Shown: positions 2,018 to 48,665, counted from the stretch's first letter. The stretch is DNA of 64,000 nt from an uncultured delta proteobacterium (GCA_963815115.1 CAWFFN010000008.1:544001-608000), one strand, 5' to 3'. The notes: generated from the sequence alone by a model not told the origin. A program made the numbers and translations.

Positions 2018-2056
2018 GGGCGCGCAGCATCGGCGTCTCGGTGTGGGCTAGGAGCG

Positions 2057-2342
2057 CGACCCGAGACTTCGTCTCGGGTCGAGACGGAGGGCGAGAATGG
2101 ACTGCATGAACAATGCGAACGTCGTGCCGCGGCCGGCGTAGCCGGCGCGGCAAACGTTCCGGAGTGCGACTCTGGAGCTGAGAACGGCATGCGTGTGGGC
2201 CGGTCAGCACGGATTGGGGACGGAGCCTTGGGCATGCCACGTTTTGCCGCGCCGGCTTTGCCGGCCGCGGCACGGCGTCCGCTCGATTCGCCGAACGCCA
2301 CACGCTCGCCCCGCTTTCGACCCGAGACGGAGGCTCGGGTCG
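2057..2342. repeat. four-hairpin intergenic repeat, copy 1 (REPIN/BIME/MITE-like)
   Basis: Terminal palindromes CGACCCGAGAC-N3-GTCTCGGGTCG at 2057-2081 and 2318-2342 (one mismatch); inner inverted arms at 2123-2157 and 2239-2274; same design at 25723 and 47527. Confidence 0.9.
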
Positions 2343-2347
2343 CTCTC

Positions 2348-3139
2348 CTAGGCGAACCGGAAGCGGCCGTCGGGCTCCGCGACGACCGCACCCTCGTGCT
2401 CGAGCTTGGTGAGGTGTGCCCGGACGGTGAGCGCTGCGGCCCACGCGAGGCCCGGATGGAGGTCCACGTAGATGCGCCGCACCAGGTCCGCGATCTCCGA
2501 GGGCTCGTCGCGCAGCGCCTCGACGATCTGACGCTCGCGCAGCAGCCGGTGCGCCACGTACTCGTCGAGCAGCTCGTGCGGCCGCTCCACGGGTGGACCG
2601 TGGCCGGGAAAGATGCTTGCGACGTCGAGGGCACGCAGACGGCGCAGCGACTCGAGATAGGCCGCCATGTCCCCGTCCGGGGGCGCGATGATGGTCGTGC
2701 CGGTCGAGAGCACGGTATCCCCGGTGAACAGCCAGCGCCGCTCCGGCTCGTAGAGGCAGCAGTGGCCGGACTCGTGTCCTGGCGTGTGCACGACGCGCAG
2801 CCGGCCGCCCGGGTACGCGATCTCCTCGCCGTCGTCCAGGAGACGCGCCGGCGCGAGCGGGCGCCCGCCGACGGTGAAGTCGGCGCGGCCGTGATGAACG
2901 GCGATCGGAACGCCGAGGTCGAGCGCACCGCCGACGTGATCCGGGTGGATGTGCGTCAGGACGAGGCCGGCGATCCCGACACCGCTGGCCGACAGCCGGC
3001 GACGGTTCTCGTCGTCGAGCGGTGCGGCGTCGAGCTGCACGGCATCGTGCTCCCCCAGCAGGTACTGATTCGTTCCCGGACCGGTCATCAGGCCGGGGTT
3101 CGGCGCCAGCACGACGCGGAGGCCGGAAGCGAGCTCCAT
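2348..3139 (-). CDS. MBL-fold metallo-hydrolase (LACTB2-like, C-terminal winged helix)
   Basis: APNPGLMTGPGTN, THIHPDH, TPGH, GD and PGHG motifs. Confidence 0.9.
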   Translation of the reverse strand: MELASGLRVVLAPNPGLMTGPGTNQYLLGEHDAVQLDAAPLDDENRRRLSASGVGIAGLVLTHIHPDHVGGALDLGVPIAVHHGRADFTVGGRPLAPARLLDDGEEIAYPGGRLRVVHTPGHESGHCCLYEPERRWLFTGDTVLSTGTTIIAPPDGDMAAYLESLRRLRALDVASIFPGHGPPVERPHELLDEYVAHRLLRERQIVEALRDEPSEIADLVRRIYVDLHPGLAWAAALTVRAHLTKLEHEGAVVAEPDGRFRFA

Positions 3140-3141
3140 GC

Positions 3142-3651
3142 TCAGCGCTCGTCCATCCGCTCGAGGCGCGCGCGCGCCCGCCGGACGAGCGCCTGCTCGT
3201 CGGCATAGGGGATGTTCGCTTCCGCTTCCGCGAGCGAGAACCAGCGCACGGCGTCCATCTCGTCGTCGCGTTCGGCGAAGCGGCCGCCGCGATGGCGCAT
3301 CAGGAAGAAGCGGACGCGCTTCAGCACCCGCACCGCCGAGCCGCCGTCGTCGCGGCGCGCATACCAGTAGGTCACGTCGCCGAGCGTGTCCTCGACCTCG
3401 CCGAGGAGGCCGGTCTCCTCGCGCACCTCGCGCAGCGCGGCTTCCATCATGCTCTCGCCCTTCTCCACGTGCCCCTTGGGGATGCTCCACACCAGCGCTC
3501 CCTCACCGCCACGCCGGCGACCGCCGAGGCACACCTTCCAGCTCCCGCTCGCTCGCCGGTAGACGAGCCCGCCCGAGGACAGCTCGCGGACCAGCGGCAG
3601 CCGGTCCGCCGCGCTCCTCAGCCGTTGCGGTCGGTCACTGCCGCGAGCCAT
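3142..3651 (-). CDS. NUDIX hydrolase
   Basis: Nudix box PKGHVEKGESMMEAALREVREETG; start uncertain. Confidence 0.9.
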   Translation of the reverse strand: MARGSDRPQRLRSAADRLPLVRELSSGGLVYRRASGSWKVCLGGRRRGGEGALVWSIPKGHVEKGESMMEAALREVREETGLLGEVEDTLGDVTYWYARRDDGGSAVRVLKRVRFFLMRHRGGRFAERDDEMDAVRWFSLAEAEANIPYADEQALVRRARARLERMDER

Positions 3652-46222: not shown

Positions 46223-46345
46223 GCGCGCGCTCTACCATGCCGTCGCCGGGGCGGGCCAGGAATTCGCGGGTCGTGCGATGCGGCGCCGCGGCGGCGAGCA
46301 CCGGGCGTCGTTGCGGTCTGCGGGCTCATGCTACAAGTCCGCGCC

Positions 46346-47524
46346 ATGACCGACGCTTTCAATCCGACGCCGGAGCATGCCGCGCTCAGGCAGCTCGTTC
46401 GCGAGTTCACCGAACGCGAGGTGGAGCCGCAGGCCGCCGCCGCCGATCGCTCGGAGGAATTCAACCTGTCCCTCTTCCGCCGCCTCGCCGATCTGGGACT
46501 GCTCGGGATCACGGTCCCCGAGCGCTTCGGCGGCTCGGGCATGGACGCGGTCGCCGCCGTGATCGCGCACGAGGAGCTGTCGGCGGCAGACCCGGGCTTC
46601 TGCCTCGCCTACCTCGCGCACTCGATGCTCTTCGCCAACAACCTGCAGCAGAACGCCAGCGACGAGCAGCGCGAGCGGTGGCTTCCCGACGCCTGCGCGG
46701 GGCGCACCATCGGCGGCATGTGCATGAGCGAGCCGTCCGTCGGCACCGACGTCCTCGGCCTGCAGACCGGCGCCGTACGCGACGGCGATCACTACGTGCT
46801 GAACGGCGCCAAGATGTGGATCACCAACGGCGCGATCAGCGACAACGAGCTGGGCGACGTCTTCCTGGTCTACGCCCGGACCGGCAAGCGGGGCGCGCAC
46901 GCCCTGTCGCTGTTCGTCGTGGAGAAGGGCCTGCCGGGCTTTCGCCTCGGTCAGAAGATCAAGGACAAGCTCGGCATGCGCGCCTCGACGACGGCGGAGC
47001 TGCTGTTCGAGGACTGCATCGTGCCGGCGCGCAACCTGGTGGGGCGCGAGGGCGATGCCGTGGTCCACATGATGCGCAACCTCGAGATCGAGCGCCTCAC
47101 CCTGGCCGCCATGGGCCTCGGCATCGCGCGTCGCTGCCTCGAGGTGATGAACCGCTACGCCGCCGAGCGCAAGGCGTTCGGACAGCCGATCAACGAGTTC
47201 GGTCAGATCCAGCGGCACATCGCCGAGGCCTACGCGCGCTTCATGGCCGGGCGCAGCTACGTCTACCAGGTCGCCGCCAGCCACGATCTGGCGCGCGCGG
47301 GAAACCGCCTCGACTCCGACGGCGTGAAGCTCTACTGCGCCACCATGGCGAAGGAAGTCGCCGACAGCGCCATCCAGGTGCTGGGCGGGTACGGCTACGT
47401 CGGCGAGTTCCGCGTCGAGCGCCTGTGGCGCGACGCCAAGCTGCTCGAGATCGGCGGCGGCACCGTCGAGGCGCACCAGAAGAACATCGCGCGCGACCTG
47501 GCGCGCTTCGCCTCGATCCCCTGA
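46346..47524 (+). CDS. acyl-CoA dehydrogenase (isovaleryl-CoA dehydrogenase-like)
   Basis: MSEPSVGTD, KMWITNG, KLGMRAS, LGGYGY and EIGGGT motifs. Confidence 0.92.
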   Translation: MTDAFNPTPEHAALRQLVREFTEREVEPQAAAADRSEEFNLSLFRRLADLGLLGITVPERFGGSGMDAVAAVIAHEELSAADPGFCLAYLAHSMLFANNLQQNASDEQRERWLPDACAGRTIGGMCMSEPSVGTDVLGLQTGAVRDGDHYVLNGAKMWITNGAISDNELGDVFLVYARTGKRGAHALSLFVVEKGLPGFRLGQKIKDKLGMRASTTAELLFEDCIVPARNLVGREGDAVVHMMRNLEIERLTLAAMGLGIARRCLEVMNRYAAERKAFGQPINEFGQIQRHIAEAYARFMAGRSYVYQVAASHDLARAGNRLDSDGVKLYCATMAKEVADSAIQVLGGYGYVGEFRVERLWRDAKLLEIGGGTVEAHQKNIARDLARFASIP

Positions 47525-47526
47525 AG

Positions 47527-47788
47527 CGACCCGAGACTGCGTCTCGGGTCGGGGCGGACGGCGAGCATGAGGCCCGATGGCAGTGCGGACGTCGTGCCGC
47601 GGCCGGCGGAGCCGGCGCGGCAGTCGTCCGGCACGCCGAACCCCCGCCACCTGTGTGAGGGCCGCAGGAGGCGTCGGCAAGAACACGTGTGCCGCGCTGG
47701 CGTTGCCAGCCGCGGCACGGCGTTCGCCTGATCCACCGAACGCCACACGCTCGCTTCCGCATTCGACCCGAGACGGAGTCTCGGGTCG
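47527..47788. repeat. four-hairpin intergenic repeat, copy 3
   Basis: Perfect terminal palindromes at 47527-47551 and 47764-47788; inner arms at 47593-47622 and 47690-47719. Confidence 0.9.
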
Positions 47789-47795
47789 AGCTGCT

Positions 47796-48665
47796 CTAGC
47801 TGCGCGGCGGGGGCGGGAAGGCGCTGTGCTCGTGCACCTGGCTGTGCGGGCGCACCACCACCGTGCTGCCGACGTAGGCGCCCTGGTAGTCGCCGTTCGG
47901 GCCGAGCAGAACCGTCCCCGTGGGGGCGAACACGGTGCCGGCCACGACGGCGTGCGGTCCGGTACGGAACGCCGCGCCGGTGATGCCGGCCGCGATGTCG
48001 ATCCGCACGCGCTCGGCCATGAGCCCCTTCACCGCACCGAGCTGCGCCCTGGGACCGAGGCGGACGTTCTCCGCCACGCCGATGCGGCAGTCGGCCACGC
48101 AGACCACACGCGCCGCCGGGGCGAGACGGATCGAGCGCACCTGGTACGTGCCGCCGTCGAGCTGCAGCAGGGAACCCCGTCCGACCCTGATCGCGCCGTA
48201 GGCGCCCTGGGCGAGCGGGGCCGCCGACGAGCGCGGGCCGATCACCACGTCGCTGGCGCCGGGCGTGACCGCGACGGGCGCGAGCAGCGTGGGATCGACC
48301 ACCGGCGTGGTCAGCTGGAGGCATCCCGGGATCGGGGAGCCGCCCACCGTCGGACCGCCGACCACCCCCGGACCGAAGCCGGCACCCGAGACGATCTGAC
48401 AGAAGAGCCTTCCCACGCGCGCGCGACGCGCGACGCGCACCGACCCGCCCACCACCGTTCCGGGGACCTGTGCCGCGGTCGCAAGGCGAACGCTGCCCGC
48501 CGTCGCGCCGACGGCGCCGGGCTGCACGCGGGCCCCGGGACCGACGCGAACCTCGTTCACGCCGAGGACGGCGTAGGCGCGCAGGACGGGCTGCGACTGG
48601 GCAATGGCTGCGCCGCGGAGACCGATCAGCAGCGCGGCGAGGAGAACGGCACGGATCATCACCAT
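47796..48665 (-). CDS. secreted beta-solenoid-like hypothetical protein
   Basis: Signal peptide; YAVLG, GTYQVRSI and GTVFAPTGTVLL...YQGAYVG patterns reminiscent of beta-helical adhesin/DUF3494-like domains. Confidence 0.55.
   Translation of the reverse strand: MVMIRAVLLAALLIGLRGAAIAQSQPVLRAYAVLGVNEVRVGPGARVQPGAVGATAGSVRLATAAQVPGTVVGGSVRVARRARVGRLFCQIVSGAGFGPGVVGGPTVGGSPIPGCLQLTTPVVDPTLLAPVAVTPGASDVVIGPRSSAAPLAQGAYGAIRVGRGSLLQLDGGTYQVRSIRLAPAARVVCVADCRIGVAENVRLGPRAQLGAVKGLMAERVRIDIAAGITGAAFRTGPHAVVAGTVFAPTGTVLLGPNGDYQGAYVGSTVVVRPHSQVHEHSAFPPPPRS

Follow-up and report, generated by a model that had tools for sequence, protein, structure and literature searches.

The window analysed here is a 64,000-nucleotide stretch of an uncultured delta proteobacterium (contig C8:544001-608000 of a 6.89-Mb assembly, G000, with 70% G+C). 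It carries three copies of a long, hairpin-rich repeat, and the question raised by this locus is what kind of element the repeat is, which enzyme would move it and why its hairpins are conserved. An earlier note on the window had placed it among elements built from repetitive extragenic palindromes (REPs), namely REPINs (REP doublets forming hairpins) and bacterial interspersed mosaic elements (BIMEs), whose partner would be a REP-associated tyrosine transposase (RAYT). We conclude that the repeat is very probably a miniature inverted-repeat transposable element (MITE) belonging to an IS1182-family insertion sequence (IS) lineage of Candidatus Binatia. Like MITEs in general, it is short (~300 bp), non-coding, multi-copy and bounded by terminal inverted repeats. 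The commonest repeat that we found in this Candidatus Binatia genome thereby acquires an identity and a candidate enzyme for its mobilisation.

Structure of the three copies in the window

The repeat is real, as all three copies have an outer palindrome A and an inner hairpin B at both ends. Palindrome A (CGACCCGAGAC-N3-GTCTCGGGTCG), searched with up to 3 mismatches, was present at all six expected places (2058-2080, 2319-2341, 25724-25746, 25976-25998, 47528-47550 and 47765-47787), while 0.01 matches are expected by chance in the window and none of 100 shuffles reached six. Hairpin B (TGCCGCGGCCGGC-N3-GCCGGCGCGGCA) also occupies six places, three on the plus and three on the minus strand, forming one inverted pair per copy, with a chance expectation of 0.01. 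From the outside in, an arm consists of (C)TAG, ~5 nt, palindrome A, a ~45-nt linker and hairpin B. Hairpin A is an 11-bp G+C-rich stem, symmetric and hence identical on both strands. The three copies align with a mean column identity of 80%, and the element is ~68-70% identical to its own reverse complement, the arms being imperfect inverted copies around an oriented core of ~90 nt.

The consensus flanks outside the palindromes are cTAGGAGAG, running into CGACCC on the left, and CGCTCCTAg, following GGGTCG on the right. The element therefore extends ~9 nt past each outer palindrome, to CTAG or TA, and the limits first given to it were too narrow. The terminal 23 nt are common to both element ends, and the outer ~20 nt (GGAGnGCGACCCGAGAC), including the outer arm of A, are the terminal inverted repeat of an autonomous IS described below.

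Copy 1 (2049..2351) runs at full length from CTAG to CTAG in the plus orientation of the family model (nhmmer, model positions 4-307, 276 bits) and is 96% identical to C9:1175775-1176083. It comprises the left palindrome A (2057..2081), whose outer arm is the inner portion of the IS-type terminal inverted repeat, hairpin B with a single bulged G (2125..2152, plus strand), the inverted B (2245..2272, minus strand), the right palindrome A with one mismatch (2318..2342) and the right-flank CTAG (2348..2351). In this CTAG, CTA 2348-2350 is the TAG stop of a minus-strand metallo-beta-lactamase-like gene (labelled by eye from its HxHxDH motif), and the codon at this position is TGA in three congeners. 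Soil and peat metagenome contigs accumulate over copy 1 and diverge at 2046-2050 and 2351, which supports its boundaries; none of the contigs over 2010-2413 joins cleanly across the copy. In the same interval the summed contig depth in a peat metagenome was 76-177 over the element versus ~5 on the flanks, implying that related copies are numerous in that community.

Copy 2 (25714..26007, plus) has its hairpins at 25723-25747 (A), 25792-25819 (B), 25901-25928 (inverted B) and 25975-25999 (A). At its left end TAG 25715-25717 is the stop of the upstream gene; in four congeners this gene is longer by 3 codons. On the right the downstream ATG follows at 26008-26010. Copy 3 (47522..47799, plus) has A at 47527-47551, B at 47595-47622, inverted B at 47690-47717 and A at 47764-47788; TGA 47522-47524 terminates the upstream gene and CTA 47796-47798 is the TAG stop of a convergent gene. 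The compensatory change from CCGGC/GCCGG to CTGGC/GCCAG that had been reported for this copy is present at 47690-47717.

An IS1182-family insertion sequence with the same ends

There is no transposase within the window, as already noticed, and matches to IS1182 and IS630 transposases sit on other contigs. The partner came to light through the termini. A search with 13 terminal nt (up to 2 mismatches) gave mostly noise, with 263 matches outside known loci, yet it exposed a 1483-bp IS in G000. With the 23-nt MITE terminus and up to 4 mismatches, the 6.9-Mb G000 yielded 80 matches; 71 of these lie in MITE loci or in loci of a single hairpin A (solo-A), and 8 of the 9 remaining ones are all 8 termini of the four IS copies, which match at 19-20 of 23 nt. 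The IS copies are 99.9-100% identical and occupy three distinct sites (two copies share flanks), and both termini read CTAGGAGC(G/C)TGACCC(G/A)AGAC. The encoded protein of 414 aa, whose gene lies at C5:640313-641554 in G000, matches the IS1182 family transposase model NF033551 of NCBIfam with 316.7 bits versus a cut-off of 270.

A homologous IS was found in G010, which represents another genus of the same bacterial family, and its transposase is 70-80% identical to that of G000. This IS is bounded at both ends by CTAG and the same repeat (CTAGGAGG..GACCCAAGAC), and downstream of the transposase gene it possesses a complete A-linker-B arm (nhmmer E = 5.5e-25 to model positions 193-308, the right arm of the MITE). 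As the G010 IS owns the full arm, an autonomous IS1182-family element genuinely ends in the arm of the MITE. CTAG was read at 8 of 8 IS ends in G000 and G010. The earlier note had considered a match to a catalogued IS end; the ends do match those of an IS, one which was identified in this analysis and not taken from a catalogue.

We also observed a second fold-back repeat in the congeners, in G001 (L183 ~1500-1815, L185 ~1490-1858 and G001:C7:105663-105980), G003 (L184) and G004 (L177). Its arms are 76-85% identical to the last ~185 nt of the G000 IS, that is the transposase-distal end, and CTAG-like ends are visible. A search of G000 at E <= 1e-10 returned no copy of it beyond the four ISs. 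These similarities suggest that the IS lineage may repeatedly spawn MITEs from its transposase-distal end.

Other candidate enzymes

Two other types of transposase were considered and rejected. The sole Y1_Tnp match in G000 (C7:784250-784444) scored 39.8 bits versus the cut-off of 80 for REP_Tyr_transpos, and the corresponding 220-aa open reading frame (ORF; L011 1252-1914, minus strand) is below both the RAYT and the IS200 cut-offs. It adjoins an L28 ribosomal protein gene (labelled by eye), and no A or B hairpin was found within the 1.4 kb examined around it. An IS630-type partner was suggested by the TA flanks, and G000 has four ISs of this type (DDE_3; C5:106029-106487, C9:1577058-1577492, C9:395216-395521 and C9:534583-534888). 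Three of them form a related 1.14-kb family with ends reading TA followed by GTGCACCGCCGTCG, and the fourth has a different repeat; these ends are unlike those of the MITE.

The family in the genome and in relatives

A regular-expression (regex) scan of G000 allowing up to 3 substitutions recovered 152 A and 114 B hairpins in 101 clusters. Written with b for an inverted B, the clusters are 31 ABbA, 17 A, 12 AB, 10 ABA, 9 bA, 9 AA, 4 ABb, 4 BbA, 3 AbA and 2 b. A 310-position profile gave 202 raw matches, which reduce to 102 non-overlapping pieces, 43 of them end-to-end (25 on the plus and 18 on the minus strand). Merging the profile pieces with the regex matches resulted in 100 loci. The element was rightly called non-autonomous and abundant genome-wide, and the possibility that only these few copies exist does not hold. 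The alternative of an Rfam family fared no better, as nothing matched the element at gathering score; the best sub-threshold match was MIR918 (36 bits versus 268), a generic long hairpin.

The commonest full-length form measures 283-286 bp between the outer palindromes, with a core of ~90 nt. Alignment of the 31 full copies showed that the right linker, when reverse-complemented, does not equal the left one, so that the element is oriented, and that the ~90-nt core is conserved and oriented as well. The cores had been described as largely unrelated, an impression due to window copies 2 and 3 being diverged or shortened versions. The spacing between A and B, described as fixed, ranges over 39-58 nt genome-wide and is mostly 44-47 nt. 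Shorter forms keep both ends and have lost internal parts, and 13 solo-A palindromes consist of one hairpin only with the outer flank of the family. Some pairs of copies in G000 are 94-97% identical, which together with the four near-identical ISs makes recent movement likely.

Of 18 other genomes from this bacterial family, 15 have the MITE family, and it was found in none of the 12 genomes searched from the nine further families of the class. Match numbers within the genus vary widely (0 in G001, 0 in G002, 2 in G003 and 52 in G004). Public contigs with matches come from hosts labelled Candidatus Binatia or, in older records, Deltaproteobacteria or Thermodesulfobacteriota; according to the profile, the 78 loci on such contigs include 20 end-to-end copies of 217-304 bp.

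Empty sites were sought in congeners whose flanks are 70-88% identical to those of G000, and the junctions were read by eye. Eight orthologous sites have both flanks next to each other in G001 and/or G003, and all eight lack the element there. At the site of copy 3 two convergent genes share one CTAG in both G001 and G003, as predicted by a CTAG or TA target. Some empty sites hold small palindromes, e.g. gccggttggccggc in G003, and such palindromes are common in DNA of 70% G+C. Other sites were less informative. The copy 1 site has an extra gene in G000 relative to the congeners and no clean empty site; only one flank of L133 was matched in relatives; the flanks of the third element of L148 and of the IS sites L129 and L119 enclose other DNA in relatives; and at L132 the element is absent from the relative and the junction aligns poorly. 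In G004 the copy 3 site (L029, G004:C247:11700-14500) carries a degenerate solo-A hairpin directly after the TAG of the same gene, and this is followed by an extra minus-strand ORF of ~2.1 kb and then by half an A hairpin.

Position at stop codons

The element ends were compared with ORFs passing a coding test based on G+C content at the three codon positions (GC3 >= 0.8 and GC1 > GC2). More than half of the assessable ends (87/166) lie within 14 nt of the stop of such an ORF, and these stops are 67 TAG, 12 TGA and 8 TAA. By comparison, 37 of 5000 random positions fall near such stops, and TAG accounts for 1496 of 5299 stops genome-wide; the whole of G000 contains only 1850 CTAG. There is no orientation bias among the 43 end-to-end copies, as genes abut the left end only in 10, the right end only in 12, both in 10 and neither in 11.

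At eight ends the stop stands at the same codon position as in congeners; read by eye, five of these have TAG for TAG or TGA for TAG, and three have TAG versus TGA in the congener. At three other ends the gene is shortened, as at copy 2, or reads on into the element. We noticed by eye that the genes beside C5:727949-728201 (right end) and C8:486176-486448 (left end) apparently lack their last 7-8 codons relative to G001 and continue into the element; such genes would have MITE-encoded C-terminal tails. Altogether the family marks ~100 places where a mobile element reshaped gene ends and stop codons, which matters for the annotation of metagenome-assembled genomes (MAGs).

Elsewhere in the window, at 59461-59581 (plus strand), we identified a SAM-I riboswitch (RF00162, 74.3 bits versus a gathering score of 44.4).

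Conservation of the hairpins

The hairpins were claimed to be retained as structures, and the compensatory changes bear this out, since they far exceed those in shuffled controls. Counted over all pieces, double compensatory cells number 12 in the left A, 11 in the right A, 29 in B and 4 in the inverted B, against shuffle means of 0.7, 0.8, 12.2 and 0.09, and in each case the observed number was reached in none of 1000 shuffles. The B events are fewer than the cells, because 26 of the 29 double changes are one subfamily marker (pair 90-102).

The copies with all four hairpins (34) allowed local pairing to be compared with pairing between the arms. Locally, A has 14 compensated and 8 broken cells and B has 21 and 6; for long-range, arm-to-arm pairing the counts are 5 compensated and 23 broken in A, and 0 and 48 in B. 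The minimum-energy fold of the whole element is one long fold-back (-213.7 kcal/mol as RNA, z = -13). We rejected this fold as the selected structure, as covariation favours four local hairpins.

Conservation of the consensus is 94-99% in the stems, 76-78% in the loops, 81-85% in the linkers, 76% in the core and 64% in the outer 5-nt flank. The outermost bases, which a DDE transposase would require, thus decay faster than the hairpins. This suggests that numerous copies are fossils, with hairpins retained for some reason other than transposition. In the three window copies hairpin A is not followed by a T-run; it may nevertheless be a terminator of the kind that lacks a U-tract. With many copies, several genera and local covariation, the family provides a data set for asking why MITE hairpins are conserved.

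Proposed mechanism and alternative explanations

In the mechanism that we propose, an IS1182-family DDE transposase would move the MITE in trans by binding its terminal repeats, and integration would be aimed at gene ends. This could proceed in two ways. In one, a CTAG or TA target that usually overlaps a TAG stop is duplicated; in the other, the element takes the place of a hairpin, as IS1272 of staphylococci does, and brings its own TAG. At a flank identity of 70-88% both ways are plausible, and CTAG may be either the duplicated target or a piece of the element itself. After insertion, hairpin A, located 5-6 nt past the stop codon, would probably form a stem-loop at the mRNA 3' end and act as a terminator or stabiliser; such a role would account for stems that remain paired next to decaying outermost, transposase-proximal bases. 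The shorter forms, down to solo-A palindromes of ~45 bp, may have arisen by internal deletion.

Several observations weigh against this reading. In G000 the likeness between MITE and IS is confined to the terminal ~23 nt, nhmmer comparison of the two is non-significant alone (E 0.1-0.28), and neither A nor B hairpins occur in this IS. In G010 the transposase has to be read in two overlapping frames (residues 1-105 and 95-409; L120, G010:C12, 27301-28529), its gene being either frameshifted or broken. Of the 15 family genomes with the MITE, only 3 (G007, G010 and G013) yielded transposase homologues at E <= 1e-20, and at this threshold none was found in the five MITE-richest ones (G004, G005, G008, G014 and G018). 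This is a real gap; those five are fragmented multi-contig assemblies, in which ISs often fail to assemble. Regarding the target, TA stands at the canonical place in only 60 of 166 assessable ends (with C before it in 47 of 60 and G after it in 55 of 60), and among 12 loci canonical at both ends only 7 read CTAG/CTAG. Four empty sites show 12-37 nt of congener spacer missing from G000 (read by eye), and at some empty sites the congeners have TGA where G000 has TAG. Finally, the conservation of the stems is partly inflated, as detection relies on them.

The interpretation in the earlier note was that two REP-like hairpin types in inverted doublets are moved as single-stranded DNA by a RAYT, i.e. 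an IS200/IS605-like Y1 transposase. The palindromes are indeed in inverted pairs, a non-specific feature, a tetranucleotide nTAG precedes hairpin A by a few bases on its 5' side, covariation indicates hairpins rather than a double-stranded protein site, and the genome has one Y1_Tnp-like gene. That gene, however, scores about half of the cut-off and lacks the hairpins at its flanks, whereas the MITE termini match those of an IS1182-family DDE IS at 8 of 8 IS ends and the IS of G010 owns the entire arm. We therefore consider a REPIN/BIME mechanism highly improbable. A different matter is whether the copies, whatever their origin, have for the most part become immobile fossils that the host retains as gene-end modules, in which a stop codon and a symmetric stem-loop serve as bidirectional terminator or RNA stabiliser and conservation reflects host selection. 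The contrast between the stems and the outermost 5 nt beside TAG points in this direction, as do the frequency of stop codons at element ends, the persistence of solo-A palindromes at gene ends and the eight ends whose stop keeps the congener codon position. The missing T-run after hairpin A speaks against it, and the 94-97% identical copies and four identical ISs make recent movement likely. Such a role is a serious possibility, somewhat short of even, and it does not really compete with a MITE origin, with which it can be combined.

The paired changes could also have arisen without selection, by self-templated repair in quasi-palindromes or from a few doubly mutated masters, with detection biased towards intact stems. 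The concentration of B double changes at one pair, a subfamily marker, agrees with this, the cells count copies and not events, and both the regex and the profile searches favour intact stems. On the other hand, double changes affect 6 pairs of the left A and 4 of the right A, in copies whose other hairpins are consensus, and the stems retain the consensus sequence itself, beyond complementarity. The B and inverted-B hairpins in other MAGs, which were not used to pick the loci, show 5 and 3 compensated pairs, respectively, but also 4 and 14 broken cells. An origin without selection seems to us rather unlikely. Returning to the IS1182-family MITE, its fullest version holds that the transposase homes to gene ends via CTAG stop contexts or terminator hairpins, and that the MITE swaps the native end for its own TAG and conserved stem-loop, which the host keeps as a bidirectional terminator. 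We regard this version as speculative and, taken as a whole, doubtful. If true, it would mean transposon-driven turnover and standardisation of gene 3' ends across a Binatia family, with solo-A as the minimal domesticated form.

Comparison with known systems

REPs and REPINs with their RAYTs are dispersed intergenic palindromes in inverted pairs whose structure is conserved. The Binatia element differs from them in that its ends belong to a DDE-type IS, it is far longer, it has an oriented core and no RAYT flanked by its hairpins is present. Correia elements of Neisseria are MITEs with TA at the junctions, often lie beside genes and have a proposed effect on transcripts; we know of no partner IS for them. 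They resemble the Binatia element in the TA junctions and in the position beside genes; their host is unrelated, as is, presumably, their sequence. A literature search on Binatota and insertion sequences found no earlier description of the element; the comparison did not extend to the ISfinder catalogue.

MITEPsy1 of Pseudomonas syringae is described as an IS5-type MITE inserting at CTAG or YTAA with a 4-nt duplication (PMC3189936). It is similar in having terminal repeats that match an IS and start with GG, and CTAG at the junctions. It differs by its 100 nt, its lack of internal hairpin modules, its other partner family and its experimentally trapped transposition. Within the IS1182 family, ISPse1 was reported with 4-bp repeats (PMC3281130), and IS1272 and TnSha1 of staphylococci are described as inserting into hairpins and terminators without target duplication (PMC5678879, PMC4923244). 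IS1272 shares with the Binatia element the transposase family and insertions just downstream of genes, where hairpins sit, and several Binatia sites show target DNA that is missing instead of duplicated. IS1272 has no primary-sequence target and makes no duplication, whereas Binatia copies are often flanked by CTAG or TA and all 8 IS ends of G000 and G010 read CTAG. The present family bears on whether IS1182-family elements generally aim at gene-end hairpins.

IS1182-related MITEs themselves exist. The partners of ISMac2 in Methanosarcina acetivorans are described as short, non-coding and multi-copy, with termini matching an IS1182-family IS and 4-bp direct repeats or none (PMC3852290), a likeness in description. 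They differ from the Binatia element in measuring 160-169 bp, in having repeats of 25-26 nt and in residing in an archaeon (PMC3852290); the Binatia element has ~300 bp, two conserved hairpins per arm, an oriented core, ~100 loci and the placement at stop codons. A MITE with an IS1182-family partner is therefore a known kind, seen here in an uncultured soil lineage, and not a new kind of system. Less ordinary are the two conserved hairpin modules per arm, the placement at stop codons and a possible tie to the hairpin targeting of IS1272.

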